Source of the DNA: Escherichia coli
Lineage (GTDB): Bacteria > Pseudomonadota > Gammaproteobacteria > Enterobacterales > Enterobacteriaceae
Direction: 5' to 3' (one strand)
DNA: 34,434 nucleotides
NCBI RefSeq assembly: GCF_003334385.1
Contig: NZ_QOWN01000046.1
Positions 1,061-18,376 of this stretch are shown one piece after another. Numbering within the stretch: the first letter of the stretch is position 1; every line of letters starts with the position of its first letter. The position numbers and the translations under genes are program-made. The notes beneath the pieces were generated by a model that had not been told where the DNA came from, did not search any database, and saw only the letters and a program-made list of their open reading frames with translations.

Positions 1061-1764
1061 GTGAATATCTCCGAAGTGCGGAAAACGGAATCAGGGAGGA
1101 GGGTTAGTGCATACAGTGATGCGCAGAGAAACGGGGCGAACGGCAGTGCCTGCTGACGTCTGCGACGGCAGAAGAGGAGGATAAACAGAAATGCCCCGGA
1201 AGCTGCGGCGGTGATTAGCAGCGGCGTGTGTTGTGGCTGTGTCCACATTGCAATTCCTGCTATCAGGAATACATCACCAAGGCCGAGTGCTTCTGTTCCT
1301 TTTGCCGTTATGAAAAACTGCCGTAGCAGGTATGTCATGCCGAACCAGAGTGATGCGTTGAGGAGGCTGTATGTGAGCTCCTCCAGGCTGTACCTGAACG
1401 CTGCCCCCAGAACAATCAGTGAAAGCGTGAATATCCGGGGAAGCCGACAGACGGCGATGTCCGTCAGCGTCATTACAGTTAATAATCCCGTCAGAATGGA
1501 AAGGAATAACAGCCCCGTGGCTTCAACACCATATGCGCCGTTGAGGCTGACACTCACTATGGCCAGAAGGCAACACACGTACACCACCGGCCTGGGCGGC
1601 CGGGTGTCGTGTACTGCTGACAGGTAGAGAGCGGCGGTGCTGTATGCAAGATAAAGAATAACCGCCAGGATGATGATTATTATTGTCATGCTCAGTAATG
1701 CGCTCACCGTCACCTCGTATTTATTAATATTGTCTGAAATACCGGTTGTGGATTTTTCGGGCAT
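1057..1764 (-). CDS. pilU: Prepilin peptidase PilU (start may be an internal Met near 1689)
   Basis: 235-aa polytopic membrane protein in the prepilin-peptidase position of the operon; overlaps pilT and pilV. Confidence 0.75.
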   Translation of the reverse strand: MPEKSTTGISDNINKYEVTVSALLSMTIIIIILAVILYLAYSTAALYLSAVHDTRPPRPVVYVCCLLAIVSVSLNGAYGVEATGLLFLSILTGLLTVMTLTDIAVCRLPRIFTLSLIVLGAAFRYSLEELTYSLLNASLWFGMTYLLRQFFITAKGTEALGLGDVFLIAGIAMWTQPQHTPLLITAAASGAFLFILLFCRRRRQQALPFAPFLCASLYALTLLPDSVFRTSEIFT

Positions 1765-2206
1765 ATATCATGCGCCGGGCTGTGTTATTTTTGCTGAAAC
1801 CGGCGTTATAGCTGCCCAGACATTCCCAGTTAACGCCGCAGCGTTGAAAATGGCGGGCCAGTATCCAGGCCCCGGTCTGAATATTCAGGCAGGGATTATT
1901 AAGCAGGTCATTTTTGTCTTTAATGACTCCAAGCTTTTTCAGCTCAGGAATATGCACTGAATTAATCTGCATAATCCCGTAATCCGTACTGATGATTTTT
2001 CCGGATTTGTTTTTATTGTGATTTATCGCAGTGGCGACCAGACTGCTTTCCTGCTGTGCAATGGTTTTAAGAAGATCAGGCGCAATCTGGTAGCGTTTTC
2101 CGGCCTGAATAAAGCAACTGTCCAGTAATGTGTTTGTGGCGACAGCCTCAGCGGGAAGGGCGAAAAATAACGGACAAATCACGGCAGAAAAAAATAACCA
2201 CTTCAT
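1724..2206 (-). CDS. pilT: PilT-like lytic transglycosylase (SLT domain)
   Basis: 160 aa with signal peptide (MKWLFFSAVICPLFFALPAEA); size and operon position match the R64-type thin-pilus PilT as I recall it. Confidence 0.7.
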   Translation of the reverse strand: MKWLFFSAVICPLFFALPAEAVATNTLLDSCFIQAGKRYQIAPDLLKTIAQQESSLVATAINHNKNKSGKIISTDYGIMQINSVHIPELKKLGVIKDKNDLLNNPCLNIQTGAWILARHFQRCGVNWECLGSYNAGFSKNNTARRMIYARKIHNRYFRQY

Positions 2207-2253
2207 GCGGATACACTCCGGAAAAGCGCCCCGGAGGGCGCTGTGTCAGGATA

Positions 2254-2790
2254 TTAACTGCTGGTTTCGAGCGTGATATCGTTTGTGGCGGCAGAGCATA
2301 CAGTTACCGGATCCACACTGGCAGGTGTCTGGCCTTTGATTTTTGTGAACATGGATGAACTGCGCAGACTGTTAATCAGCTCAACACAGTTTTCTTTCGG
2401 TACGGCTTTACTGGTTATGGTATAACCGTATTTATTACTTGTTGCTGCAATGGTGACATCGCCTCCCCATGCATTTTTGGCCTTGTTACTTCCGGCGATC
2501 ATATCAGCCGGCAGGGAACCGCTTTCTGTCAGGGTTTTGATATAATCTGTGCCGGTATATCTGCCCTGGAACTTGTACTGCTTCATTTTTGTTGCAATAG
2601 TCTGCAGGTTTTTCAGTTCACGCTGGTTATCACTGGATGACATTGTGCTGGACATCTGACTCATTGCGAGAGCTACCACAATACCGATGATAATCAGTGC
2701 ACCGGCAATTTCCAGTAATGTTAAACCTTTATCCTCCTCTTTCTCTTTTTTTAAAGCAAAATAAGAATAAAGACATGATCTGAAGTTCAT
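2254..2790 (-). CDS. pilS: Type IVb prepilin (major pilin) PilS
   Basis: 178 aa; charged leader followed by KG/LTLLEIAGALIIIGIVVALA, a type IV prepilin cleavage motif and hydrophobic N-terminal helix. Confidence 0.8.
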   Translation of the reverse strand: MNFRSCLYSYFALKKEKEEDKGLTLLEIAGALIIIGIVVALAMSQMSSTMSSSDNQRELKNLQTIATKMKQYKFQGRYTGTDYIKTLTESGSLPADMIAGSNKAKNAWGGDVTIAATSNKYGYTITSKAVPKENCVELINSLRSSSMFTKIKGQTPASVDPVTVCSAATNDITLETSS

Positions 2791-2837
2791 ATATCACTCC
2801 TAGTGTTATGGGGATCAGAAATATTCTGTATGCGGGA

Positions 2838-4004
2838 TTATTGTTTCAGCATGTCGCTGATACTGTAGATGGCAGATATCATGTTAAGAATAAAAAAGAA
2901 GACAAAACCTCCTGATATACCGGTAATAATTAATCCAATTCGTTTTACCCGTTTTTTTGCTTCCTCCAGCCACTGATCGGCATAGAGTGCCATGGTTGCC
3001 ACACTGTCCTCCCTTTCGGAGTTCAGGAGCAGTTTATTGATGCATATTCTGGACGGAAAATCATAACCGGAATTTCGCATTGCTGTGGCCAGATTCTGAC
3101 CGGATAATACATGTTTTCGTATTGCCTGAATTCTCTCCTTTAACCATTTATTCTTTTCTGCACCTTTTTCCATTCGGAGCAGCGCCTGCGAAAGAGGAAT
3201 ATTAATCTGCAGCATGGATGAAATACTGAACAGATAATTCACCCCGTGTAAGGTCTGATACAGTGACCAGGGGGGAGCCTTGTCCAGCATCCTCCGGCCG
3301 GGGCCGGTATACCGGCTGAATGAAAAACGGATCAGAAGCGTCAGGGCGAAAATGGTCCCACAGAGCCAGAATCCGTACCCGATGAAAAATTCCGACATGC
3401 CGGCAAGCAATTTCATCTGGAATGACCATTTATCTTCTGAAGCAAACGCACTGACGATGGGGATGATACGGGTATGGGCGTTGTACATATTCACCACACA
3501 GAGCGAAAGCAGCAGAAGGGGGTAGAGGCAGACGGCAATGAGGCTGGATGTCATTTCCCGCCGGGCTTTAACGGTTCTGGCCACCTGGAAAAGGGCGTCG
3601 GCAATATTTCCGCGCTCTTCCCCGTTTCTGATTAACGTGGCTTCCTCCGGTGGCACCCAGGTTAACAGGGCACCGGATAACATGCCGCTGGCTTTGATGG
3701 AATCGATGCATTCTTTTGCCAGAAAATACATGCCGGATGTGCCTTTCTTTTCACCAAAATCGGTTTCGATCTCGCAGAGAAATTCGAGTGCACGCAGGGA
3801 CGGCGTTCCGTCACGTATCATGCCGCCCAGGGCTTCGTAGAACTCCACCCGGTTCAGGGCAAAGGTTTTTCTGGCTATCCAGACAGTCAGTGCTGTCAGC
3901 TCAATGTCGGTGTTGTTGAGTTTTTCCAGAAATCTCATGTCAGTGCAGCAGCGTATAGCTGTCCTCGTCGATGGGAGAGATGTAATGGGCCGCCAGCGGA
4001 TCAA
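2838..4004 (-). CDS. pilR: PilR, GspF/PilC-family inner-membrane platform protein (probable true start about 3938, just after the pilQ stop)
   Basis: Polytopic membrane protein following the ATPase gene; the internal Met (MRFLEK...) gives about 366 aa and abuts the pilQ stop. Confidence 0.75.
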   Translation of the reverse strand: MIRWRPITSLPSTRTAIRCCTDMRFLEKLNNTDIELTALTVWIARKTFALNRVEFYEALGGMIRDGTPSLRALEFLCEIETDFGEKKGTSGMYFLAKECIDSIKASGMLSGALLTWVPPEEATLIRNGEERGNIADALFQVARTVKARREMTSSLIAVCLYPLLLLSLCVVNMYNAHTRIIPIVSAFASEDKWSFQMKLLAGMSEFFIGYGFWLCGTIFALTLLIRFSFSRYTGPGRRMLDKAPPWSLYQTLHGVNYLFSISSMLQINIPLSQALLRMEKGAEKNKWLKERIQAIRKHVLSGQNLATAMRNSGYDFPSRICINKLLLNSEREDSVATMALYADQWLEEAKKRVKRIGLIITGISGGFVFFFILNMISAIYSISDMLKQ

Positions 4005-5448
4005 CCTGTCCGCTGTTGATTTTTCCCAGCAGATGCTGATTTCGTGTCATGCCGCCCAGCTCCCGGTGCCAGTATGTTCTGGCCTCAATACGCCCCTTTT
4101 CCCGGTACAACTGGAAAAAACGGGCATCCGGGGAGATGACTTCTGCGATCACCGTTCGTCCTGTCACGCCACGCCAGCAGTGCGGGCAGCCTTCATGATT
4201 TCGCAGATATACCTGGTCCGGGTTGCAGACGCTTTCCACCAGGCGCCGTTCATCATCCGTGCGCTCGGTCGCCACCTCATGCCAGGGGCGACGGCAGTGC
4301 GGACATATCAGCTGAACCAGACGCTGGCTCAGCAGGCCAATGAACAGTTGCGGGTCGGCAATCATCCTGGCCTGCACCCCCTCCATCTCAAGACGTTCGA
4401 GGATGTTAATCGGGTCGTTCGCATGGATGGTGGTCAGCATCAGATGGCCGGTCATGGCGGCTTTTATTGCCGTAATGGCGGAATCGTGGTCGCGGATTTC
4501 ACCGTTCAGGATCCCGTCGGGGTCAAGACGCAGTGCCGATTTGATGGAGTCCACCCAGCCCTGCGCGGTATCCATGACGGCGGTCTGAATGGCACCGGGA
4601 ATACGCCCTTCCGGCGGGGATTCGATGGTGAACAGCCTGCGACGGGGAAGAAGAATACCGCCGGTGTTGTTGAAGCCGTACTGTTCAAGGTACGCCGCAG
4701 AGGCGGTTCTCAGCGTGGTGGATTTTCCTGAGCCGGTGGGGCCTGAGAGCGTGATAATGCCTTCAGGGCGCTGCAGAATGCGGCGAAGAGTGCGCTCCTG
4801 GTCAGGGTGATAGCCCAGCATACTGAAGGTCGGGATTTGCTGACTGTCATCCTTGATCAGACGGAGCACAGCATAGAGGCCGCCCACACAGGGGTAGTGG
4901 GAGTAGCGTGCACCAAACAGACCGGCCAGTTTCAGATACTGCTCTGAAAGACGTGCATCCTGAGGCACCCCGGGATCAAACTGTGTGCCTTTGATAACAT
5001 CGGTCATGCCGGAATAGGTGGCCCCCAGTAATTCGAGGCCTTCTTCTTTCCGGAGGATATCGAGCACTTCCAGTTCGCCGTGAACCCGGGCTTCCACATA
5101 GGTGAAGTCCGTGTTGTCTCGTCCCGGGGTCATATGAAGGTCTGAGGCACCAAGAGAGGCAGAATGGCGGATATAGCCGAGCATTTTCTGCTGTACCGGG
5201 TTAATGACGCTTTCATCACCGGCGGTTGTGGTGTCCTGTCTGAGGCGGGCTATCACATCCAGGGTGGTGAACTCAAAGTCTCCCACACGCCCCTGATGAC
5301 GTGCGCGCAGGCGGGTCAGATATTCCTGGACGGCACGCAGATGTTTTTTTCCCTCCACGACCCTGACCCGCAGATGACCGGTTTTATCTGTGTCGATAGC
5401 CACATAATCCAGAATGTCATCCGGTGGCAGGTCTGCAGACTCCAACAT
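3940..5448 (-). CDS. pilQ: PilQ, type IV pilus/type II secretion-family assembly ATPase
   Basis: 502 aa with Walker A GPTGSGKST and a C-terminal tetracysteine motif (CPHC...CPHC) typical of GspE/PilB ATPases. Confidence 0.9.
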   Translation of the reverse strand: MLESADLPPDDILDYVAIDTDKTGHLRVRVVEGKKHLRAVQEYLTRLRARHQGRVGDFEFTTLDVIARLRQDTTTAGDESVINPVQQKMLGYIRHSASLGASDLHMTPGRDNTDFTYVEARVHGELEVLDILRKEEGLELLGATYSGMTDVIKGTQFDPGVPQDARLSEQYLKLAGLFGARYSHYPCVGGLYAVLRLIKDDSQQIPTFSMLGYHPDQERTLRRILQRPEGIITLSGPTGSGKSTTLRTASAAYLEQYGFNNTGGILLPRRRLFTIESPPEGRIPGAIQTAVMDTAQGWVDSIKSALRLDPDGILNGEIRDHDSAITAIKAAMTGHLMLTTIHANDPINILERLEMEGVQARMIADPQLFIGLLSQRLVQLICPHCRRPWHEVATERTDDERRLVESVCNPDQVYLRNHEGCPHCWRGVTGRTVIAEVISPDARFFQLYREKGRIEARTYWHRELGGMTRNQHLLGKINSGQVDPLAAHYISPIDEDSYTLLH

Positions 5449-5544
5449 AAGGCCTCCTTACGGGCAGCGGTGCCCGGAAAATATGTTTTCTGTTATTAAG
5501 CGAGGGAAATAATCAGTTCTTCTGCGGAGAGAATCTGGACATTT

Positions 5545-6141
5545 TCAGCACAGGCTTAACAGTGTAAAAATGATTACGCCTCCAAAGGCGAATAACAGGG
5601 GAATGTTTTTCTCCGGCTGTGTTGATCTCAGCGTTAATACCGGTGTGGCGAGAGCGTAAAAAATAATACCTGCGGTATAAATAAAATAAGGTGTGATGCC
5701 GGACAGATTACATATACTGGCGAATATCATAAGAATGACGGCAACTACCGATAAAATAATGGAAGTATTCTTCCATTCACCAGATGGTGTAAGTGAAATG
5801 ATATCGCCATCCTGTTTATAGTTCGTGTTCAGCTTCAGGAAATGACGGATATCTTTCAGCGTGTTCAGTTTCTGCTGGATCTCTTCCACAAGTTCCTGTC
5901 TGTCGGTTTTTTCACGGAGCAGCTGGAATTTTGTCTCCCTCAGTACAGATATAATACGGTCCACCTGGCCGGGGGAGGGATAGTAATGATGTTCGAGCAT
6001 CCACCGGACATCGGCGATTAACCGGTCAGTTACCGGTGTATTACCGTTGTTAATGAGAGGTGTTTCGTGCATCCACTGAAATATGCGGTAGATATGTTGC
6101 TTAACAAAAATAAAATCATCGGTGGTTTTATTCTCCAGCAT
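5545..6141 (-). CDS. Hypothetical membrane protein (soluble N-terminal domain plus C-terminal transmembrane helices) embedded in the pil operon
   Basis: 198-aa ORF between pilP and pilQ; noticeably more AT-rich than the flanking pil genes; no family recognised. Confidence 0.5.
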   Translation of the reverse strand: MLENKTTDDFIFVKQHIYRIFQWMHETPLINNGNTPVTDRLIADVRWMLEHHYYPSPGQVDRIISVLRETKFQLLREKTDRQELVEEIQQKLNTLKDIRHFLKLNTNYKQDGDIISLTPSGEWKNTSIILSVVAVILMIFASICNLSGITPYFIYTAGIIFYALATPVLTLRSTQPEKNIPLLFAFGGVIIFTLLSLC

Positions 6142-6236
6142 GAGATATATCCCGTCGAGTGTTAATAATAAAACGTCCCGGGTGTGAGGTGATTTGTGAT
6201 GTATTGTACGGAATATTATTTCTGCACTGTAATCGC

Positions 6237-6791
6237 TTACGCAGGTGATATATCACACCAGAGGAAATACAGCGGAATGAAGCTGTAGAGTGACCAGAAA
6301 AGCCCGACGGGATCTTTTGCCCACAGGCATAAGAATGTCAGTCCGGTGCACCATGCGCCGGCAAGTGCCGCGCATAATTCAGCGCCTCCGGAATTGCCGC
6401 TCTTCATCATATAACAGAGCACGATCAGCAGTGGGATAATGAAGACGAGCGGCAGGACAAAGGATTCGGCTGCGGATATCCATTCCCGGTAACGCCAGCG
6501 GTCGTTTAATCTGTCGGCATCATATTTCAGACAGTTGCTCAGGAACGCCAGATCGTTCATGAGGGGGGCGTCCTGGCCATACTGCGCCGCGAGGCGCATT
6601 CTGGCACCCCACAACCGGGCACTCAGGGCACGGAGTTGTGCCGGGGTGACCTGTTTTCCCCGACAAAGTTGTTCCTGTAATTGTGTTGCCTCGTGGACAA
6701 TATCTGTGTGGTTCACCCCGTATTCTGCAGCGGCTGTTTCCAGGTCACGGATGATCAGGCTGAGCCAGGATATCAGTTCACTGATGTTCAT
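6237..6791 (-). CDS. Hypothetical membrane protein embedded in the pil operon
   Basis: 184-aa ORF with the same architecture as its neighbour (soluble N-terminus, hydrophobic C-terminal segments); no family recognised. Confidence 0.5.
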   Translation of the reverse strand: MNISELISWLSLIIRDLETAAAEYGVNHTDIVHEATQLQEQLCRGKQVTPAQLRALSARLWGARMRLAAQYGQDAPLMNDLAFLSNCLKYDADRLNDRWRYREWISAAESFVLPLVFIIPLLIVLCYMMKSGNSGGAELCAALAGAWCTGLTFLCLWAKDPVGLFWSLYSFIPLYFLWCDISPA

Positions 6792-6839
6792 TGTCGTTCA
6801 TCCTTTTGCACGGACAGCCGCCTGTACTGGCGGCCGGTT

Positions 6840-7292
6840 TCATGGTCGCAGGGTTTTTCTGATGCCGGACTGCTCCAGTACCACACTGTCCGGTGTGATT
6901 TTCTCCACGAGATAAGGGGTTCCGGGGATGTTCTGGCCCGTCTTCACATCGGTGATGTGTCCACCCGAAAGTTCTATCCGGGCGCTCAGCTGAGGCTGTA
7001 CACCAAATATTTCTGTCAGACGGGGGGATGCCGCCGTCGACGGGGCAGTCGGGATGGCGGACGTGCTTTCCTGCGGACGACCGGGCTCTGCGGGAATACC
7101 CTGCTCCAGCATGCGCAGCTCATGACGGATTTTCTCTCTCGCCAGCATGGCTTCATACAGGGCTGTTTCGTCCTGTATCCGCTCAATCTGCAGTTGCCGG
7201 GGACTCTGTTCCTCTGCGTTTCCGGTTGTGGCCATTGCCGTTGCCGGTAACAGCAGCGCTGAAACCAGAAGGGCTTTTGTTTTAGCGTGCAT
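6840..7292 (-). CDS. pilP: PilP-like periplasmic pilus biogenesis protein
   Basis: 150 aa with signal peptide (MHAKTKALLVSALLLPATAMA); operon position and size match R64 PilP as I recall it. Confidence 0.65.
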   Translation of the reverse strand: MHAKTKALLVSALLLPATAMATTGNAEEQSPRQLQIERIQDETALYEAMLAREKIRHELRMLEQGIPAEPGRPQESTSAIPTAPSTAASPRLTEIFGVQPQLSARIELSGGHITDVKTGQNIPGTPYLVEKITPDSVVLEQSGIRKTLRP

Positions 7293-8577
7293 AATATTTA
7301 CCTGTAAATTGATAGTGGAAACGACCGTTCTCCAGTTGTCGTGTGACAGAGATAAAACGGACAGAAGGCGCCTTCAGACGTTCAACCAGCTGGTATGCCG
7401 GGAGTAGCGTCTGTATCTGAAGGTCATACTCTTTCCACGGAGGCTGGATAATATTTCCGTTTTCATCGGTGACACTGTTACTGACCTCCTGCCAGTCCAG
7501 CGTCAGTGGCATTGACTGAGCAAGCGTGGTCAGTTGTTCCTGCAGGACAGAGCTTTCCGGCAGAGCATCAACGTCGACGGGATGTTCAGGCAGGCGGAAG
7601 CTGACTGGCAGGCCAATGCCGCCGGTCTTTCCTTCCGGCATCACAATAAAGGGGCGGGTGCCCGTCATATCACTGATGCGCCGGATGAAGTCAGTCACTG
7701 TCGCGCCAGCTGTATTAGTGTACGAGGCGCGAAGATTGCCGCTGCCGCCGTCAGTTGAACATTCAGCCAGCGAATAACGCCATCCGGCGGCAGACAGTGG
7801 CAGTGACGTCCATATGTCAGCACATCCCTGGATAAATGCGTCGGTTTCGGGGAGTCCGGGCCAGGGGGGACTGATTTGTTCCTCTGTGACCTGTCGGGCA
7901 GCTGCTGCCTGCGCGGCTTGTTCAGTCTTCCACCGTTCATAATACTGCCAGCCGTACCATGCAGCGCCGAGAAGGGCGATGATCAGCGAGACAGTGATGA
8001 ACTGCGCTCCCCGGGATACCGGATTCAGGCGCGCGGCAGCCGGATGTTTACCAGAGCCGGTCAGGGTGGACAGCGGCAGGGCCTGATTCTGATCGCCTGC
8101 TGAAAATGCCACCGGTTCATAGCGTGTCCAGCCCTGCTCCGGTTCGGTGTTGATGGAAAGAAAGGTATCCCGGGCTTCACGGACCTCTTCTCCGCTTCCC
8201 ACTAGGTCACTGACGAGAACACCGTCGACAGCGGAAACAAAGCTGTAGCGCGGTGTTTCTCCGGGTAACGTCAGTTCCGTGATGGCATAGCCGCCCTGTT
8301 CAAGCAGTGGCAGGATCAGCAGGGCGAGGGAGAGGTACTGACGGGGTTTTCCGGGCAGTATGCGGCGACTGGCTGTGGCCACCATGGTGTGGGTGTTGGC
8401 ATCTTCATTACTGAGATACTGACAGGCCAGGAAAAGGTCGGCTTTCTGTGCCCGGGCAAAGTCGCGGGCATGCCGGTACTGTGAGGGCAGTGTTTTCCAT
8501 TCCAGACCGGCCAGAAACACATTGCGCCCTGCCGTCAGCGGAAACATCTGCCGCTCTGTCGGTGAAATATCCGTCAC
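7282..8577 (-). CDS. pilO: PilO-like pilus biogenesis protein
   Basis: 431 aa with a central transmembrane segment; position between pilN and pilP; size matches R64 PilO as recalled. Confidence 0.7.
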   Translation of the reverse strand: MTDISPTERQMFPLTAGRNVFLAGLEWKTLPSQYRHARDFARAQKADLFLACQYLSNEDANTHTMVATASRRILPGKPRQYLSLALLILPLLEQGGYAITELTLPGETPRYSFVSAVDGVLVSDLVGSGEEVREARDTFLSINTEPEQGWTRYEPVAFSAGDQNQALPLSTLTGSGKHPAAARLNPVSRGAQFITVSLIIALLGAAWYGWQYYERWKTEQAAQAAAARQVTEEQISPPWPGLPETDAFIQGCADIWTSLPLSAAGWRYSLAECSTDGGSGNLRASYTNTAGATVTDFIRRISDMTGTRPFIVMPEGKTGGIGLPVSFRLPEHPVDVDALPESSVLQEQLTTLAQSMPLTLDWQEVSNSVTDENGNIIQPPWKEYDLQIQTLLPAYQLVERLKAPSVRFISVTRQLENGRFHYQFTGKYYAR

Positions 8578-8597
8578 GATCGTCCTCCTTGTGCAAA

Positions 8598-10219
8598 TCA
8601 GATGATATTGGGCGTGATCAGCACCACGAGAATGGTGTCGTCGTTTTCACTGTTGATCCCACCGCCAAGACCGAAGAATCCCGGCGTGCCTACACCCTGT
8701 TTTCCGCTGCGACGTCCTGACTGCTGGAAGCCACTGATAATGACCGTCTGCCCGGATTTCAGATCCACGGTCTGATTGATGGTTTTCAGATCCACATTCG
8801 GCAGCTGGGCTTTACTTCCACCGCTCTCATAATTCTCAATAACCGGTTTGTCGGAGAGACTCATGGAATAGAGCAACTGCAGTGTCTGTGAGTCCGGGAG
8901 AATGAACGGCAGAAGGGTCATGTTAAAACCGGTGGTGATGGTGGCCGCATTCAGGGAGGTGGATGAGCCGACATTGGCAGTGGTATCCGTCGTCACACTC
9001 TCTATGTAACTCTGCTGATTGGCGATCTGCATTGGCACCGGCGTCAGGTTTTTGGTGACGGCAGAGTTCTGGGTCACCACACTGACATCCCCCTGGGAAG
9101 ACAATGCTTTCAGGAAGGCTTTTGAACCGGTGAGTTTACCGTCCACAATGGAAACACCACCTGTGATGGCATCACTGGCTGCACTGGTGAATGTGCTGCC
9201 GAGACTCAGTCCCAGCGTTCTGTCGCTGAAGACTGCGTTCCAGTCGATACCGGCCTGCTCATTGCGGGTTTTCCGGATACTCAGAATTTCCACATTCAGC
9301 ACCACCTGACGTTTCATCTCTTCATTGCGTTTTTCAATGAATGCCCGGACCGTTTCCAGAACCTGTGGATTATCTGTGACGGTGATAAAGCCCGTGGACA
9401 TGAACATGCGTCCGATACCCGGGGTCAGCATTGATGTGACCGCATTTTTCACATCCTGATACAGCGCAGACTTCATATCCACTGTGGTGGTCTGGGTATT
9501 GCTGGCATCACCGGAAATGGCATCTGATGCACTGCCTCCTGATGAGCCGTTTGAGGACATGGTGCCGCTGACCACAGTAGCGTTATAGGCCACCTGACTG
9601 TCCATATAGGTGATGGGGAAGGTCTGTGTCTCGAGATAATAGAAGATGATATGCGAGCCGTCATAGCGCCAGGATATACCGAGACGGGAGGAGACCGCAT
9701 TCAGCAGGGTCGTCAGGCCGGAGGCATTCAGTTCAGACAGTGCTGCGGTATTTCCCGGCAGACGGGATGGTGGCGTGTCAGATGCGCCAATGGCGGCAAG
9801 GGGAACCATGCCGCTCGCATCCGGTGGGGGGGTAACGCGCCCTGGATTTGTTGTGTGCTGCCGGTTGTGGATGTATTCAGGTATGCCAGTACATCAGGTG
9901 TGATCCGTACCGGAATATGGCAGCTTTCCGTGATCCGCTGAACCACCTGCTGAAGGGTGATGCTCTGACGGGTATGAATGACAATGGGACAACCGGGAAC
10001 GGTTTTGCCGGTGTTTTTATCCATGACCGGACGGGGATTGATCCATTGTCGTGAGGATTCCTTAACAACCGGCGTCCGGGTTCGCAGATCAGACATCATT
10101 TCCCGTGCCCGTTGTTGTTCCGCAACGGCTTCCTTTCTTGTGCTCTCAAGCTGTCTGTAACTGGCACAGCCCTGTAACAGAGCGGCGGCAATCATAATGG
10201 CAAGAATTTTTTTATTCAT
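8598..10219 (-). pseudogene. pilN: PilN secretin lipoprotein, reading frame interrupted (or sequencing error) at a G7/C7 homopolymer
   Basis: The N-terminal ORF (9728-10219) has a lipoprotein signal (LLQGC) and the C-terminal ORF (8598-9809) is secretin-like; they overlap in different frames. One extra C in the C7 run at about 9826-9832 would fuse them into a roughly 540-aa protein. Confidence 0.7.
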
Positions 10220-10249
10220 GGGAGATCCGTGATTTATTCAGATTCGTGA

Positions 10250-10687
10250 CTAATTCATCCAGAGGATGACGTGATCGGGGATCACTGACGGAAGTGTGAT
10301 GGAAAGCGCTCTGCCGGCAGTGTCCAGCAGTCGGCCGTTTTCCACCCTGCCGAGCAGAGCAGAGTCATTACACTGTTCCCTGAGCGCGGCCATCAGGCCC
10401 GGGGTTTCTGTAGCCCAGACAAAAACACGTTGCTGGCTGATGATATGACTGACGGTATCCGTCCCGGGAATCCCGAGCTGAGTGGATGTCAGCCGCCCTC
10501 CGGCTGTCCGTCGTTCCGGATGCTGATGCAGGTAATCATTGATGGCGTTCATATAACGAATGAACGTTGCTGCCTGTTGTGTATTTTCTGCGGCCTGATG
10601 ACGGTGTTCGCTGCGGGAGAGCTGACTGGTGAACCAGAAATTGCCTGTGGTCGTGATGACCATGATGAACACGATGAACCAGCCCAT
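10250..10687 (-). CDS. pilM: PilM-like pilus biogenesis protein
   Basis: 145 aa with an N-terminal transmembrane helix; position between pilL and pilN. Confidence 0.65.
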   Translation of the reverse strand: MGWFIVFIMVITTTGNFWFTSQLSRSEHRHQAAENTQQAATFIRYMNAINDYLHQHPERRTAGGRLTSTQLGIPGTDTVSHIISQQRVFVWATETPGLMAALREQCNDSALLGRVENGRLLDTAGRALSITLPSVIPDHVILWMN

Positions 10688-10691
10688 AAGG

Positions 10692-11762
10692 TTATTCCTG
10701 TGGACGATCTGTCACCCGCAGCAGACATTGTGCTGTGCTGGTCCGGGCATACAGCGGTTTTTCCACCGGGGTGTAGAGTGCGAAGAGCTGTTCCAGCGCC
10801 TGGCGGAAACTGCCGGTGAAAACCAGAGGGGCATCGATGCTGTAGTTGACAGGTGTTTCCCAGCGTAGCGTCCAGGTGCCGTGGGGGCATTTTTCGGATG
10901 ATGTCCAGCGGGCCAGTCCGTCTTTCAGGGTGGTCCCCTTTTCCATTTTCCACTGCCGTGGCGGTATGACCTTCTGCGGTGGTGGCACTACCGGTTTCGT
11001 GGCCACCGGGGCTGGCGTGGTTGTTCTGCTCTCTGGTGTTCCGGATGTCCCGGTGGTGGTCTGAGCCCGGGAAACGCTGACGGCAGGTGTCACTGGTGTC
11101 GGGCCTGCCGGCGTTGCGGTGCTGCCCCTGAACGGATTACGCGGTGTATCAGCAGCTTTCTGTGAACCCTGCGGTGCCGTGACGTCGACCGGCGGTGTTG
11201 CAGAGGTCGTGACAGTCAGTATTTTCCTGTTCCAGTCCATATGTCCGTAAAGCTGCTGGCCGGCCAGCAGCGCATTCAGTGCCCGGTGCCACTGGTCATT
11301 AACGGACCAGACGGGGAGGCGTTTGTTCAGTGCCGGTATGGCAGCGTTCTGTTGCCGGAACTGCCAGCCGGGTGGCAGCAACGGGCGTATCCAGTCACTG
11401 ACGGAGCGCTGACGTGCCTCACGTAAATAAACGACGGATGACTGACCGGGTTTACCGGTCATAACCAGTGCGGGCAGCTGTGTGGCCTGAAGGAGCGGGC
11501 GGGGAGGCAGTGCGGTACTCTGGCTGCTGACTGCGGTTGTGGGCGTCGCTGTTGTTGTCGGGCGGGGCGGCGTCACAGGGCGGGTCACCGGTGGCGGAAG
11601 CAGACGTTTTTGCGTATGGGCGATAATGGCAGCGCTTTCGCGAATTTGTCCGTCGACGAACACCAGAGCCGGAGGCGTGGTGTCAGGAACAGGCGTGGCA
11701 TTAAAGGCCGTACAGCCGCTGAGTAATGACGGCAGAAGGAGTGTAAGTGATTTCTTTTTCAT
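10692..11762 (-). CDS. pilL: PilL lipoprotein, first gene of the pil operon in this window
   Basis: 356 aa; lipoprotein signal LLPSLLSGCTAF followed by a Pro/Thr-rich linker. Confidence 0.7.
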   Translation of the reverse strand: MKKKSLTLLLPSLLSGCTAFNATPVPDTTPPALVFVDGQIRESAAIIAHTQKRLLPPPVTRPVTPPRPTTTATPTTAVSSQSTALPPRPLLQATQLPALVMTGKPGQSSVVYLREARQRSVSDWIRPLLPPGWQFRQQNAAIPALNKRLPVWSVNDQWHRALNALLAGQQLYGHMDWNRKILTVTTSATPPVDVTAPQGSQKAADTPRNPFRGSTATPAGPTPVTPAVSVSRAQTTTGTSGTPESRTTTPAPVATKPVVPPPQKVIPPRQWKMEKGTTLKDGLARWTSSEKCPHGTWTLRWETPVNYSIDAPLVFTGSFRQALEQLFALYTPVEKPLYARTSTAQCLLRVTDRPQE

Positions 11763-11863
11763 AGAATAAATCCGGTATGTATCGGGTTACGGTATAAGAC
11801 AGGTGGCTGGTAACAGGTCTTCAGATAAATATAATATCATCAGGATATTGATGATGAACATTC

Positions 11864-12304
11864 ATGTTCGGGGTGATTATGAAAACTAAAACATTCCGGT
11901 TCCGGAAATATAAAAAGAAAAACGTTCTGCTGCAAATAATAGTTTCCAGGAAACAAGTGATATTGTTACGCAATATTATGACGGACTCTTTATTGTTTTG
12001 CTCGATAGGTTTTGTGTTTATGAATATGTGTGATTCAAAATATACGTTGATTTCTGGTGAGGGTGGTTTACGTGCTGATTGTGCCGATTATTTATTCTTT
12101 GCCGTATATGCAATTGCGTTGCTAATGATAATTTTATGGATGACAGCTTCAGTTATTTATTCTATTGAAGAATATACGAGTCAGGAAAAATACGGTAAAA
12201 GTAAAGTCTATAGCTACTTCTGGTTTTTTATCTGGTTTTTTGTTTTTAACTGTGCTGTTTATTCTTCTCTGAAGGCAATAAATATAAAAGATATAATCAG
12301 CTAA
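11864..12304 (+). CDS. Hypothetical small membrane protein (AT-rich islet)
   Basis: 146-aa ORF with hydrophobic segments in a low-GC region; convergent with the next ORF. Confidence 0.35.
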   Translation: MFGVIMKTKTFRFRKYKKKNVLLQIIVSRKQVILLRNIMTDSLLFCSIGFVFMNMCDSKYTLISGEGGLRADCADYLFFAVYAIALLMIILWMTASVIYSIEEYTSQEKYGKSKVYSYFWFFIWFFVFNCAVYSSLKAINIKDIIS

Positions 12305-13184
12305 TGGCAGCAGAGGGATTCACGATAAAACCAATGACGTAACCTGTTCCCGAGCAATAAAGGACTGTTGCCGGGGATGTTTTTCGTGTATCCCATATCT
12401 TTGAATCTGTATCAGATGGCGTGTGTTCAATGACCGATAAACTGGCCGGAATGGTCGTGTTAAAAAAAATACTTAACGCGCCTGTAAATAAAGCAGCGGG
12501 AAGAGAAATGCTGGAATGATATATCCATGTGGAGAGTATCAGTGCCAGAATAGCATTTCCTGTATTTATATAATAAAACCAGTCGTTATGGCGCAGATAC
12601 CGGGTAACGGAGAGCCCCCTGGCGGACACGCCATCCGGGAAATGCAGCGCCAGAAGTAGGAGATAAATAACTGCTATTTCAGCCAGTGTAACAGGCAGCA
12701 TAATGGAAAGACGTGACAGGAATGACATCAGCATGTCACTTATGACAGGATTAAGTCGTGTTGAAGATAATTCGTAAATGCCGGTTGTAAAACAGAACAT
12801 ATAACCCAGTCCGGCATAAGCAATAATGGAAACCGGCGTCAGTTTGTTTGATTTGTATGTTTTATACGTTCTCGTTGCTTCTTTAATGGTTAAAATTGTC
12901 AGCAGGGATGTGAGAATCATAACGGGTGGTATATATATGCAGATATATACCTGCAAAGGGTACTCAGTATCGTATACCCGGGTTGTTAATATAACGGACA
13001 GACTCAATAAGGATATATTTCCGAAATGAAACCAGCGATACTGTTGAAGATACTGGAAAACAGTGATGCCTGAAGAAAATGTCCATTTGCCGCGAGCATA
13101 AATAACAACCCAGAATAAAGAACTAATGATACATATCATCAGTATGCCGGGTAATATTGCAAAAATAAATGATGATGTGCTCAT
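12297..13184 (-). CDS. Hypothetical polytopic membrane protein (AT-rich islet)
   Basis: 295-aa ORF with multiple predicted transmembrane helices; low GC relative to the neighbouring pil and yqiK genes. Confidence 0.45.
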   Translation of the reverse strand: MSTSSFIFAILPGILMICIISSLFWVVIYARGKWTFSSGITVFQYLQQYRWFHFGNISLLSLSVILTTRVYDTEYPLQVYICIYIPPVMILTSLLTILTIKEATRTYKTYKSNKLTPVSIIAYAGLGYMFCFTTGIYELSSTRLNPVISDMLMSFLSRLSIMLPVTLAEIAVIYLLLLALHFPDGVSARGLSVTRYLRHNDWFYYINTGNAILALILSTWIYHSSISLPAALFTGALSIFFNTTIPASLSVIEHTPSDTDSKIWDTRKTSPATVLYCSGTGYVIGFIVNPSAAIS

Positions 13185-13376
13185 TATTAAATCTCCATCA
13201 GCATGGTGATGCTTAAATTTTTACGGTTGTGAGGTGCGTAATAAATATCATGTGTAGTTGTGAATAATAGCGTCAGCAACATATATAAAAATAATCTGCA
13301 TTCCTGAAAAATATCGTGGTTGTGAAATATTTAATTTTTACCCCCTTTTATGGGGGATGAAAAGCAGGCTGTCAGG

Positions 13377-13694
13377 CTATAACTGAACGCGGTTTCTGGA
13401 TTTTGGTGCTAATGTCACATCTTTCCATTCACAGCTGCTTCCGGGGATACGCTCTTTGCGTCGTATTATACGGGAGTTCTGACACACAATAATTAAGCCA
13501 TTGTCTGCCGTCTGAAATGGCATTATAGCGATGTTTATATCTTCTGTTGCAGGAATATAACTGACTTTCTTTTCACATGTATTGGTGTATATGACAACTC
13601 TGAATTTTTCTGCGGACATTTTCAATCCTCTTTTAAACCAGAATATCCCGTGAGGGCATTCTTTGTGAAAAAGATGCCGGAAAAATTCCGGCAC
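13377..13694 (-). CDS. Hypothetical protein immediately downstream of the flotillin gene (true start possibly the internal Met MSAEKF)
   Basis: ORF begins 6 nt after the yqiK-like stop on the same strand, consistent with co-transcription. Confidence 0.35.
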   Translation of the reverse strand: MPEFFRHLFHKECPHGIFWFKRGLKMSAEKFRVVIYTNTCEKKVSYIPATEDINIAIMPFQTADNGLIIVCQNSRIIRRKERIPGSSCEWKDVTLAPKSRNRVQL

Positions 13695-13699
13695 GGGGA

Positions 13700-15394
13700 T
13701 TAAACCTGTTGTGGTTCTGAGTTATCCGGAGCGGTTACCGGTTCGCTGACATCCGGAACCTTTTCCGGGGCAGGCATGACCAGTGGACGTGTCAGGGCTG
13801 TAAGTCCTTCACCGGATAAACCCACCTCTTTCAGCAGGGAGTCGATGAGCGGAGCCTGTGTACGGTAAGCCAGAGCGGCGGTTACTGCCTGTTCAGCGAG
13901 ATTTCCGCCACTTATGTCGGTTGTTGCTGTTTTACCGCGGGTAACACCGCCATTCAGACCATCCACCTGAATGATTTTAATACCGTCAATGGATTTCATT
14001 GGTTCTGTGGACTTCTCTATGACGGCAGGTAATGCATCCAGCAGGGCAAGACGGAAGCGGAGGCTGGTCTGCTCATCCGAAAGCACGTTAATGGCATCGT
14101 TCAGTGCGCGCTGTGCTTCTGCTTCTGCCAGACCTTTCTGACGGGTGGCCTCCGCCAGTTCAATAATTGCTGCTGCCTGGAGTTCGGCTGCTTCTTTTTC
14201 AGCCTGTGCGCAAACCGTCAGTTCAACCGCTTTCGTTTCAGCTTCCTGAGCAGCAGCAATCAGGGCAACCTGTTTGGTACGGTCGGCCTCCGCAGTCTGG
14301 CGGGTGGTTTCCACATCCTGCTGGGCCTGTACGGCCTCAGCCAGTGCTTTACTTGCCCGGGCTTCTGCCTGTGACTGCTCTTCCGATTTTGCCGCCACGG
14401 CAATGGCTCTGGCCTGGCTGGCGATTTCGGTTGCCTGCTGTTGCTCAATTTCCCGTATGGCCACTTCCCGTTCGGCTTCGACCTGGCGGGTACGCACTAT
14501 CTGCTGTCGTTCGATTTCGGCTTCCTCTATCTTACGTTCAGCCAGAATTCGCGCGGATTCTGCTTCACGACGTCGTTCAGCTTCAATAGCAGCAATACTG
14601 GCACTCTGCTCTGCCGTACGGGTTTTTACCCGTTGTTGTTGCTCCAGAGTCATGAAGGCTTCCTGCTGTTCAATCTCCAGACGTCGGGAGAGTGCATCCC
14701 GGTTTTTTTCCCTGATGGCCACTTCAACATCCTGCTCAACTTCGTTGCGTTCGCGGCGACGACGTTCTGTTTCCTGGGTCAGAAGGGTCAGGCCTTCAGC
14801 ATCAAAGGCATTGTCAGGATTAAAATGTACCCGTGCAGTCTGGTTGAAACTTGTCAGCGACACACTTTCAAGCTCCAGACCGTTTTTGGATAAGTCTTCC
14901 GCAACGGTGTTCTGCACACCCTGAACAAAGTTCTCGCGGGCATCCTGTAAATCCTGCATGCTCATTCTGGCCGCCGTGGCCCGTAGGGCATCAACAAATT
15001 TATCCTCGACCAGACTACGCAGATCTTCAGGTGTGAGCGTGCGTTGTCCCAGCGTCTGGGCTGCAGTGGATATTCCTTCGGCTGATGGTTTTACCCGAAG
15101 AAAAAAGGCAACGGCAACATCAACACGCATGCGGTCGCGGGTTATGAGACTTTCAGCCGCTGCACGACTGACTTCCAGCTTCAGGGTGTTCATGTTGACG
15201 GGAATTGTTTCGTGAAAAATAGGCATAACAATTGCACCGCCACTCATTACCACTTTTTGGCCTCCCAGACCTGTGCGGACAAAGGCCTGCTCTGCCGATG
15301 CCCGGCGGTACAGGCGGGCAAATATCAGCCCGATAACGAACAGGGTGAGGACCAGCGCTATAACGGTAAACAACCATCCCGGAAGATTAAACAT
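13700..15394 (-). CDS. yqiK: Flotillin-like SPFH/band-7 inner-membrane protein (YqiK-like)
   Basis: 564 aa; N-terminal transmembrane helix, SPFH-like domain, long Ala/Glu/Gln/Arg-rich coiled-coil region; matches E. coli YqiK (about 553 aa) in architecture. Confidence 0.8.
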   Translation of the reverse strand: MFNLPGWLFTVIALVLTLFVIGLIFARLYRRASAEQAFVRTGLGGQKVVMSGGAIVMPIFHETIPVNMNTLKLEVSRAAAESLITRDRMRVDVAVAFFLRVKPSAEGISTAAQTLGQRTLTPEDLRSLVEDKFVDALRATAARMSMQDLQDARENFVQGVQNTVAEDLSKNGLELESVSLTSFNQTARVHFNPDNAFDAEGLTLLTQETERRRRERNEVEQDVEVAIREKNRDALSRRLEIEQQEAFMTLEQQQRVKTRTAEQSASIAAIEAERRREAESARILAERKIEEAEIERQQIVRTRQVEAEREVAIREIEQQQATEIASQARAIAVAAKSEEQSQAEARASKALAEAVQAQQDVETTRQTAEADRTKQVALIAAAQEAETKAVELTVCAQAEKEAAELQAAAIIELAEATRQKGLAEAEAQRALNDAINVLSDEQTSLRFRLALLDALPAVIEKSTEPMKSIDGIKIIQVDGLNGGVTRGKTATTDISGGNLAEQAVTAALAYRTQAPLIDSLLKEVGLSGEGLTALTRPLVMPAPEKVPDVSEPVTAPDNSEPQQV

Positions 15395-15420
15395 AGTGAG
15401 AACCTCTGTATATGTCGGGA

Positions 15421-16041
15421 TTAAAGAACATCCGGCCAGGGATTCAGTTCGCCCAGCCAGCAGGAACCGGAAAGACGGCAGACAATAATCACTTTGTCTC
15501 CTCGTCTGAATTCTTTCCCGGCCTCCGGCTCCAGCAACAGGTAATGAACCTGCCCGAAGCGGTCTGTGAAGCGACCTTCACAGGGGGAACCCGCCACTGC
15601 GTGATAACCGGTGATGGTGGCCATACAGCCGATGAATGCCTCCTCGGTGAGCGCCGTTGTTTCATCACGGGGTAACCAGGGGGCAATCAGTCTGCCGGTG
15701 CGGTGTACGAGAGGACATGTCAGCAGCAGGCAAAGTGGTGTAAGGAGAATGTTCGGGGCAGGAGCCTGCAGCAGATGAATAATAAGACCCTGCAGGAGAA
15801 TGCCGGATATACCAAAAAAACCTGCCAGCATACAGAGGACGATCAGCAGGGGGATCCGTCCGATGTTCAGCCAGTCCAGCGCCTCTCCTGTCAGACCCTC
15901 CGGTAAATCAGGTGTATCCATAGCTGAAGAGAGGGAGTGTCCGCAGAGCAGGGCGATAAGTTCAGCGATACCAGTAAGCAGAACAAAAGTCAGGGCTGCC
16001 AGATAGGGTGCGTTATACGCGGTAAGTAACGTCAGTGTCAT
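15421..16041 (-). CDS. yqiJ: NfeD-like inner-membrane protein (YqiJ-like), partner of the flotillin
   Basis: 206-aa membrane protein directly upstream of the yqiK-like gene with a 27-bp gap; size matches YqiJ (about 209 aa). Confidence 0.7.
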   Translation of the reverse strand: MTLTLLTAYNAPYLAALTFVLLTGIAELIALLCGHSLSSAMDTPDLPEGLTGEALDWLNIGRIPLLIVLCMLAGFFGISGILLQGLIIHLLQAPAPNILLTPLCLLLTCPLVHRTGRLIAPWLPRDETTALTEEAFIGCMATITGYHAVAGSPCEGRFTDRFGQVHYLLLEPEAGKEFRRGDKVIIVCRLSGSCWLGELNPWPDVL

Positions 16042-16307
16042 TTTTCCTCCTGTGGCAGGTCAGTCAAACAACATTATGGCGTGAAGCTTCCGCTTCTTTA
16101 ATTGTCAGAAGAAGCATATCGTCAGTCATCAGAAGACAAGGGGATGTCTGCAGGAGGGGATGATAACAACAGAAGCCTCACGCCGGAATGCGCTTTATGA
16201 CAACCGGAGAGGACGGATAATCAAAAATGGGACATCCACATCAGCAAACCGCGATTTGCGAAAAAAAGTCTGCGGAGAGTGGCTGCCGTTGTGGCTGTCC
16301 CGGTATT

Positions 16308-17093
16308 TCAGTGTAAAAGCAGACTGTTGTCCATGCCCCATTCCTCTTCCGCTAAACCTGAATGGCCCACATGAAGAATGCGTGACAGCATATTTCTGCC
16401 GCTGCCGTTCAGACTGCATTCGCGCCCGTGTGCGAGCATAAAACCTTCATCCCGGAATATCTCTTCAACCTCAGACGTGTTGATGGTGGCCGGATGGATT
16501 AATGAAAATGCCACCGGTCTGATCATTCTGCCCGTGGTGGAAAAGGTGTCCCCGGTGCTGTTCAGCTGCAGGATATGACGTTTCCCGGTCTGTGCGCGGG
16601 AAAGTGTCTCACTCAGTAACTGGTCATTCCATGCGCACGTGCCAATCTGCCATCCCAGACTCCTGCACGTGGCAAGCGCTGCTCGGAAGCGGTACAGGTC
16701 ATACAGTGCAGCGTTGTGGCCACTTTCCAGCAGTGATTTCAGCGTGTTCTCTACCGGTATGTCCGTATTGGTGGCCAGCAGTTTGCGCAGGGCGGTGAAC
16801 TCTTCAGGCATCCCCCTGAACTCACTCATCTGTCGGGCGGAATCAAGCCAGTTCAGCAGGAAGCGCCGGCGACGTCGTTCATTGTTGATGCTGTCCGGGG
16901 AGGTGGAGAGCGCTTCAAGCATATTCTCCAGTAACTGAATGACAGGGTTTTCCGGGGATTGAATGGTCATAACGATGTCCTGAAAAAAAATGCCCGGCAG
17001 CCGCTCTCCGTACACGCAGGTGTCACCGTTGCTGGGCATTGGGGAAAAGATGGGGAAAAAAAGCCCGGCCATAAAGGCCGGGAAAGTCGTCAA
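16308..17093 (-). CDS. Hypothetical protein (probable start at the internal ATG about 16970, MTIQSPENP..., with an AGGA 7 nt upstream)
   Basis: Open frame between the NusG-like gene and yqiJ; no family recognised. Confidence 0.5.
   Translation of the reverse strand: MTTFPAFMAGLFFPIFSPMPSNGDTCVYGERLPGIFFQDIVMTIQSPENPVIQLLENMLEALSTSPDSINNERRRRRFLLNWLDSARQMSEFRGMPEEFTALRKLLATNTDIPVENTLKSLLESGHNAALYDLYRFRAALATCRSLGWQIGTCAWNDQLLSETLSRAQTGKRHILQLNSTGDTFSTTGRMIRPVAFSLIHPATINTSEVEEIFRDEGFMLAHGRECSLNGSGRNMLSRILHVGHSGLAEEEWGMDNSLLLH
17056..17082 (-). terminator. Candidate rho-independent terminator after the NusG-like gene
   Basis: GC stem CCCGGCC / GGCCGGG with a 5-nt loop, followed on the minus strand by a run of 7 T (plus-strand A run at about 17056-17062). 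Confidence 0.45.
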
Positions 17094-17109
17094 ATGAAGA
17101 CAGCAATTT

Positions 17110-17751
17110 TCATGTCAACGCTCCGTCATCAGATACCAGGTGCAGGAGCAGGGCGATCCTCGACTCCGGCAGAGGCTGGGCATCAAGCCGGAGGAGGTAC
17201 TGGTAACGCGCTTTTGTCAGCCAGAGGGTGGAGGCAGCATCCAGCTCCTCCCTGGCTGCCGGATTGAGCGCAGGATCCGGGTACACTTTCATCAAAGACT
17301 GAACGATATCCTCCCTGACGGTTTTGATTTCACCGGCCATTTTCACGAAGTCCAGAAAGGCACTGTGACGGCGAAGGTGAGTGAAGCTGTGGCTTTCGGG
17401 GTCTGCTTTCAGGAAAAAGTAACCGGGAAACACGGCGTGTATATGTCGACGGTAACCACAGACTTTATCCGTGCGGCGGACCTTTTTCAGTATCAGGGGT
17501 GTCCAGGGAAGGACGTGTTGTTCGGAAAGCCAGGAAAAGAGATGTTCGCGGTTTTTGCCGGCAGGGATGTACTGTGCCAGATACCAGTTGCGTTGATGTA
17601 ATTCACTGATATTCAAAATCCGGAACGCTCCGCGAAAATCGATCCCCGCAGGGGGGCTTCGATGTTGTTGTGAACGGCGAATACATAAAGCATGTGTCGG
17701 AAACAGCGGCTGACCCACGTTCAGCCTGGCCTGCAGTTCTGACAGGCACAT
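17110..17751 (-). CDS. NusG/RfaH-family (NGN domain) transcription antitermination-like protein; start uncertain, probably downstream of the listed Met
   Basis: The segment NWYLAQYIPAGKNREHLF...LFPGYFFLK resembles the RfaH/NusG N-terminal domain (WY...LFPNY.F). IncI1 plasmids are recalled to carry a NusG-like transfer activator. Confidence 0.6.
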   Translation of the reverse strand: MCLSELQARLNVGQPLFPTHALCIRRSQQHRSPPAGIDFRGAFRILNISELHQRNWYLAQYIPAGKNREHLFSWLSEQHVLPWTPLILKKVRRTDKVCGYRRHIHAVFPGYFFLKADPESHSFTHLRRHSAFLDFVKMAGEIKTVREDIVQSLMKVYPDPALNPAAREELDAASTLWLTKARYQYLLRLDAQPLPESRIALLLHLVSDDGALT

Positions 17752-18296
17752 GATTTACGCACTCTTGTAAGCCTTGTGGACGGTTTCGAGGCGGGCAAAA
17801 ACCGACAACTCCTGCAAACAGGATTAATGGCTGGAAAATATATTACATAAGGATGTATCTGTGGCAAGAGTGAAGATAAGCAGTTGAATAGATCGTTATA
17901 TTTGATAAGACAGCATATTATTCTATATCTGATGTTGTGTGCGGGATATTAGATCGTTTAAAAAAATTCGGCGATCTCTTCTACTGGAAAAGAAGAAAAA
18001 AGCAGCATAAAAGATCGTTTGTGAAATTGTTCATTTTTTTGACACAGTTCAAAAAAACGACGCTTTTTAGGGGGTTAAAGAGGGCAACTGTAACCCTGAG
18101 AAATCGTGTCGGCTTTTCAAAGCGGTGGAAAAGGGGTATATTGCGGATCGTTATTCAGTGGCTTTTGGGATCCTCGCGATCCGGAAAGTCAGAAAACGGC
18201 AGGATGCGCCATAAGGCATTCAGGATGTATGGCAGAAACGACGGCTGTTTGCCGGGGCCGGAAGGCTGAAAAAAGTTTCAGAAGACCATAAAGGAA

Positions 18297-18352
18297 AACC
18301 CCCATAATCTTCTTATCGAACTTGGCGGAACGTAGAGAAGATTATGGGGGCC
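18297..18352 (-). ncRNA. inc: Inc RNA/RNAI-type antisense RNA region (stem-loop I) of the replication control system; exact transcript ends not determined
   Basis: Long perfect stem (ACCCCCATAATCTTCT / AGAAGATTATGGGGG) whose loop contains TTGGCG, the hexanucleotide recalled for IncI-alpha/IncB antisense-target kissing loops; about 25 nt upstream of the leader peptide gene. Confidence 0.5.
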
Positions 18353-18376
18353 TCACAGAATACGGGGTAAGTATAT

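Follow-up and report, generated by a model that had tools for sequence, protein, structure and literature searches.

How a gene for an outer-membrane secretin comes to be divided between two overlapping reading frames, and whether the division is real, reversible or an error, is the question raised by the pilN locus of an Escherichia coli contig (NZ_QOWN01000046.1), of which we analysed a stretch of 34,434 nucleotides, hereafter the window. The initial annotation described a split of pilN at a run of seven cytosines and proposed for it an inactivating slip, a slipped-strand on/off switch of pilus expression, or an undercalled homopolymer. The split is present as it was described. On the minus strand the junction reads ...CAG GGC GCG TTA CCC CCC CAC CGG ATG CGA..., the C count is exactly seven, and ORFs of 163 and 403 aa overlap in different frames and meet at this run. 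The parts of the locus are the following.

8598..10219, minus strand: the pilN pseudogene in full, 1622 nt long where the intact form has 1620 nt, delimited by sequence comparison with intact alleles
9728..10219, minus strand: 5' pilN fragment, 163-aa ORF, matching positions 5-78 of the TIGR02520 profile with 33 bits
9826..9832, minus strand: C7 homopolymer (G7 on the plus strand), site of the +2 insertion, intact alleles having C5 here
8598..9809, minus strand: 3' pilN fragment, 403-aa ORF starting at an internal Met (M137 of the native protein), matching PF07655, PF00263 and positions 111-511 of TIGR02520 (390 bits)

The 163-aa ORF starts with MNKKILAIMIAAALLQGC, which on inspection is a lipoprotein-type signal, and carries native residues 1-131 (10219..9827) with the signal, the lipobox (LLQGC) and the N-terminal region. 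After Pro131 it runs into an out-of-frame tail of 32 residues (HRMRAAWF...HCLN) and stops at 9728..9730. Both secretin domains, Secretin_N_2 and Secretin, lie in the 403-aa ORF, which itself lacks a signal peptide. G/C runs of seven or more are expected about 2.5 times per window by chance, as estimated from mononucleotide shuffles; judged by comparison with its relatives, what is non-random about this one is its position exactly at the frame junction together with a length two nucleotides greater than in every relative. An intact pilN joins signal and secretin in a single polypeptide read in one uninterrupted frame, and in the window this frame is broken by a +2 frameshift at 9826..9832. The locus is a pseudogene of the PilN family and not a functional member of it.

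That the gene is pilN and encodes a secretin, as had been proposed, is confirmed by the agreement of TIGR02520, the Pfam Secretin domains and the order of the pil operon. The NCBIfam model TIGR02520 (PilN family type IVB pilus formation outer-membrane protein; curated cut-off 287.65 bits) matches an intact relative with 433.1 bits over profile positions 5-511, precomputed Pfam matches on the 403-aa product are PF07655 Secretin_N_2 and PF00263 Secretin, and secondary profile matches are to the MshL, SctC and PilQ secretins. From where the TIGR02520 and Pfam matches fall, the break lies in a linker of weak conservation that separates the N-terminal lipoprotein part from the secretin domains. PilN of the IncI1 plasmid R64 (WP_000748143.1) resembles the window gene in operon position, in its TIGR02520 match, in its C-terminal secretin domain and in its lipoprotein signal, to which the window signal with its lipobox Cys aligns (by inspection, without a dedicated predictor). 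Both also have the L-P-x-P-D motif at the site of the break. However, R64 PilN is 560 aa long against 539 aa in the intact window-type allele and reads LPAPD without a C run, whereas the window copy is frameshifted and cannot give a full protein; with an amino-acid identity of 41%, R64 serves for motif comparison only and is unusable as a nucleotide reference for the run.

By its gene content, the region around pilN belongs to an I-complex conjugative plasmid and is its operon for the thin (type IVb) pilus. The plasmid records nearest to it, typed IncK2/Z or IncI-gamma/K1, show the order pilV-pilU-pilT-pilS-pilR-pilQ-(two ORFs)-pilP-pilO2-pilN-pilM-pilL..., followed by a RepA of the IncFII family, and the placement of pilN within pilL-pilM-pilN-pilO-pilP-pilQ-...-pilV matches both the annotated relatives and R64. 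In the window the neighbours of pilN are as follows.

1057..1764, minus strand: pilU prepilin peptidase, full length as in relatives
1724..2206, minus strand: pilT transglycosylase, full length as in relatives
2254..2790, minus strand: pilS pilin, full length as in relatives
2838..3938, minus strand: pilR, full length as in relatives
3940..5448, minus strand: pilQ ATPase, full length as in relatives
5545..6141 and 6237..6791, minus strand: two hypothetical ORFs, full length as in relatives
6840..7292, minus strand: pilP, full length as in relatives
7282..8577, minus strand: pilO2, full length as in relatives
10250..10687, minus strand: pilM, intact, upstream of pilN
10692..11762, minus strand: pilL/TcpQ-family lipoprotein gene, intact, upstream
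18454..19326: I-complex RepA

The hypothetical ORFs between pilQ and pilP (5545..6791) encode 198 aa and 184 aa. This pair is absent from R64 and from several I-complex contigs, in which pilP is followed directly by a PilQ of 502 aa.

The meaning of the run depends on what intact relatives carry at the same place. Three intact relatives that we aligned read TTA CCC CCA CCG GAT (LPPPD), with five C's, in a gene of 1620 nt and 539 aa, and the window pilN minus two C's is identical to the allele encoding WP_001034996.1. Relative to C5, then, the window carries two C's too many and not one too few. The initial annotation had supposed that one C was missing, which would make C8 the intact state, and this is contradicted by the relatives. 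Its observation that one added C restores the frame is correct, since in silico the addition gives ...GALPPPPDASGMVPLAAIG... and a fused product of 540 aa, but the natural protein is not recreated in this way, the native state being C5 with 539 aa. WP_001034996.1 is the intact PilN of I-complex plasmids (among them NZ_CP027341.1, pJNQH940-1 and p1-S1-KEN-03-A) typed as IncK2/Z, IncI-gamma/K1 and IncB/O; outside the run it is the same gene, with C5 and a single 539-aa ORF where the window has C7 and two ORFs, and the backbone of the window is 99.9% identical to these intact-allele plasmids over 16.3 kb. Of the intact C5 alleles, the two most frequent occur on at least 1000 contigs each, other intact alleles on 666 and 477, and intact pilN alleles in total on more than 3000 contigs. 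A separate case is CP061259.1, whose pilN is otherwise identical and lacks one G at nt 48, with the CDS annotated from a downstream start (420..1919 of the locus); this loss probably reflects either a fault of assembly or a further frameshift.

Variation in the length of the run is rare among the relatives. With an 81-nt query centred on C7, no C6, C7 or C8 was found in 216 PLSDB plasmids or in 192 RefSeq complete E. coli records; in neither set did the identity exceed 97.5%, a value that corresponds to a gap of 2 nt and that any record with one of these longer runs would have surpassed. With a 261-nt query in sensitive mode, the span was 259 nt in all sampled records (40 of 462, evenly spread down the ranking) except a single one, which has an 11-bp deletion. 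Sister allele groups of 246 and 19 records encode the same three prolines as CCA CCG CCG, without a homopolymer, and on this comparison the C run is a codon-choice accident of one allele group and not a conserved tract. A single C6 occurs at the same run in an unrelated pilN allele of ERR271222. It is an independent +1 slip, which makes the run a minor slippage or indel hotspot, and it is consistent with a stepwise history C5->C6->C7. On the same ERR271222 contig pilR is also split, into ORFs of 106 and 244 aa (contig 12319..13420).

We consider it about 85% probable that pilN in the window is a real, inherited frameshift pseudogene caused by two additional C's in a C5 run, and neither an error nor a switch. 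The possibility that C7 is a sequencing or assembly artefact, and that the real plasmid has an intact pilN, gains something from the fact that homopolymers are a classical spot for platform errors and from CP061259.1, a PLSDB relative in which another part of pilN lacks 1 nt, likely through error. However, the discrepancy is +2 from C5 and not -1, and the same C7 is found, among the contigs listed, in at least four separately deposited samples (SRR3823653, SRR10357324, SRR7819145 and GCA_002190145.1 with contig LYBI01000532.1), which came from at least two assembly pipelines and carry it within stretches of 7.2-19.8 kb that match the window at 100.000% identity. Being identical over the compared DNA, these samples could all stem from a single strain sequenced repeatedly and need not be independent isolates, and their long error-free k-mer contigs suggest accurate short reads. 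Within positions 1..16300 of the window only one of the 91 homopolymers of at least 5 nt, the pilN run, differs in length from the two nearest complete plasmids; the other 90, including runs of 7-8, agree with them, and the complete plasmids differ from the window there by 22-23 SNPs with the pilN run as the only indel. The same context has been assembled as C5 in hundreds of other records, and it is very unlikely that an artefact would add two bases reproducibly to one C5 run and never do so in hundreds of like contexts. The undercalled run of the initial annotation is contradicted by the C5 reference, by the shared C7 and by the single deviating homopolymer, and a technical origin of C7 altogether appears extremely improbable to us. 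A slipped-strand contingency switch, in which C7 (off) would alternate with C8 or C5 (in frame) and turn the thin pilus off and on within populations, has several points in its favour: the run sets the coding frame, one further C would give a protein of 540 aa with a single extra Pro in a poorly conserved linker, ERR271222 shows an independent C5->C6 slip at the same run in an unrelated allele, and C7 is generally known to slip more readily than C5. Poly-G and poly-C contingency loci are familiar from pilC and opc of Neisseria and from surface genes of Campylobacter and Haemophilus, where likewise a G/C homopolymer in the 5' part of a gene for a surface structure sets the frame. In these mucosal pathogens the ON state typically has a tract of at least 8, the tract is conserved as such, and its length varies from strain to strain and inside a strain. 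The only functional state of pilN, in contrast, is C5, below the classical length of a contingency tract; the alleles do not conserve the run, and no variation of this kind in its length is seen. Thus, of the features that characterize contingency genes, a frame-setting repeat tract within the gene is present, but close relatives show no ON/OFF length polymorphism, and the tract is neither conserved beyond the need of the protein nor long in the functional state. The 216 and 192 records show no length polymorphism, the Pro-Pro-Pro is kept but respelt CCA CCG CCG in sister alleles and replaced by LPAPD in R64, and the other pilN lesions are of irreversible types (nonsense codons, deletions, an IS insertion). 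The hypothetical revertants of this allele background, C8 with 540 aa and C2 with 538 aa, gave no record in the gene-position index by exact full-length match. Every contig of the C7 lineage has C7, and this uniformity, seen in an assembly-level comparison, is what the initial annotation had named as the sign of a fixed pseudogene. The comparison with relatives gives no support to phase variation, which we regard as decidedly unlikely, and of the three explanations offered at the outset it supports only the inactivating slip.

Recoding would leave the gene functional in spite of the frameshift, through a -1 slip of tRNA-Pro on CCC CCC C or through slippage of RNA polymerase, with functional full-length PilN as the outcome. 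A -1 shift on the run would indeed yield exactly LPPPPDASG..., 32 sense codons precede the stop in the 0 frame, and a hairpin can be drawn just downstream. An in-frame X XXY YYZ heptamer is however absent, the 0 frame being TTA CCC CCC CAC with an A before the run, and the downstream fold (MFE -31.5 kcal/mol) is no better than that of shuffled sequences (z = -1.45; 20 of 200 shuffles as good) and lies in normal coding sequence shared by every intact allele. The frameshift arrangement is moreover confined to one clonal lineage and is not conserved. Some full-length protein could leak through if ribosomes or RNA polymerase slipped on C7 at a low level, but recoding at the run is unsupported on the sequence evidence, and functional rescue by this route is very unlikely. 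Two further ideas are unlikely, if somewhat less so, namely that C7 is an accidental newborn reversible switch (C7<->C8, with one extra Pro) or that pilN knock-outs are under positive selection for loss.

Under the pseudogene reading, the C5 run encoding the Pro-Pro-Pro linker would have grown to C7, likely by replication slippage, either in one step or through C5->C6->C7, where the second step would have struck a gene already dead and been neutral. From the native start, translation leaves the frame after Pro131 and stops 32 codons further on, producing a lipoprotein stub of 163 aa. The secretin domains are translatable only from the internal Met137, without a signal peptide, so that this piece cannot reach the outer membrane. 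The lesion is recent, the remainder of pilN and all of the pil operon being free of damage, and the data are best described by a young pseudogene fixed in one clonal I-complex lineage (IncK2/Z-like) that has been sequenced several times. The premature stop may have some polar effect on pilO-pilV.

The truncated 403-aa product is not confined to the C7 lineage. It is recorded on 21 contigs and already stands in public protein records (EEQ1570815.1, OWD65976.1), while an exact look-up of the 163-aa ORF gave no record, and the C7 contigs listed have no gene called between pilM and the 403-aa gene. The same 403-aa product is left by other pilN lesions, most of them irreversible, which comprise a TAC->TAA nonsense mutation, a CAG->TAG nonsense mutation in two samples, an A5->A4 frameshift, deletions of 8 bp and of 11 bp (the latter in CP088605.1), an insertion of IS21 and a large deletion; one apparent lesion is only a scaffold gap. 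The other broken alleles are likewise inactivated in the 5' third with the same 403-aa downstream ORF remaining, but they are independent events of different mechanisms, and the same run was hit only in ERR271222. As this sample of broken alleles was ascertained by construction, through the look-up of the 403-aa ORF, it gives no basis for a claim of enrichment. Set against the more than 3000 contigs with intact alleles, the lesions have the look of ordinary pseudogenisation, occurring at low frequency in an accessory transfer function. In CP088605.1, which belongs to a sister allele group with CCA CCG CCG, the 11-bp deletion affects the same Pro-Pro-Pro-Asp codons (locus positions ~1614-1640) and pilN is unannotated; the record was found as the weakest match of the query, which is an ascertainment effect.

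The consequences can be predicted from the genetics of related plasmids. [quoted passage not shown] (1999), cited in PMC4288162. In the IncI1 plasmid pESBL, pilN has a score of 1.00 and is non-essential for surface transfer (PMC4288162), although some pil genes behave differently in pESBL and R64. The thin pilus of the IncK plasmid pCT has been described as an aid to conjugation in liquid (PMC3377399). By analogy with R64, pESBL and pCT, the prediction for the C7 lineage is that thin pili are missing, that transfer in liquid is inefficient and that surface conjugation is retained; thin pilus and liquid mating are thus probably abolished, and mating on surfaces would persist through the tra/trb system, as the genetics of R64 and pESBL indicate. 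The predicted loss extends beyond the thin pilus and efficient liquid transfer to the choice of recipients mediated by pilV and the shufflon, which bears on the spread of an I-complex plasmid in fluid or gut environments. If the knock-outs (C6, C7, nonsense mutations, deletions and IS21) were selected, the advantage might lie in escape from pilus-specific phages or from an envelope cost of the secretin, with the rest of the operon kept. A search of the literature found no described pilN frameshift, only general pil biology, and the accessions of the C7 samples and assemblies gave no match. For annotation, the locus should be entered as a frameshifted pilN pseudogene (+2 in C5), and it should neither be "repaired" to C8 nor be called phase-variable. 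The gene is well known and the mutation an ordinary loss of function, which poses no challenge to current understanding.

Several other features were observed in the window. Identity to the two closest plasmids falls sharply at 16329..18460, where SNPs are clustered and several small indels occur, among them A8 against A6 at ~16983 and, at ~17014, a difference of 2 nt that compensates, and the hypothetical ORF at 16308..17093 has a length unlike that of its annotated counterpart in these plasmids. The pattern suggests a recombination boundary in the region from the traB/nusG-like genes to repA. An A11 run (32672..32682) and a C11 run (32715..32725) lie 33 nt apart (TGGTACCCCCCCCCCCGGGAATCCTGGAGACTAAAC) at the left end of an IS3-family element (IS1203/IS629-like); matches in PLSDB start only at or after the C11 run (query positions 72-83 onward), which places this run at the boundary of the repeated IS element. 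A run of C8 on the plus strand (28228..28235) lies inside a 355-aa ORF (27305..28372, minus strand), which has only a weak apolipoprotein N-acyltransferase-like match and adjoins an ABC-ATPase gene (28529..29161) and three unnamed ORFs (29154..32147).
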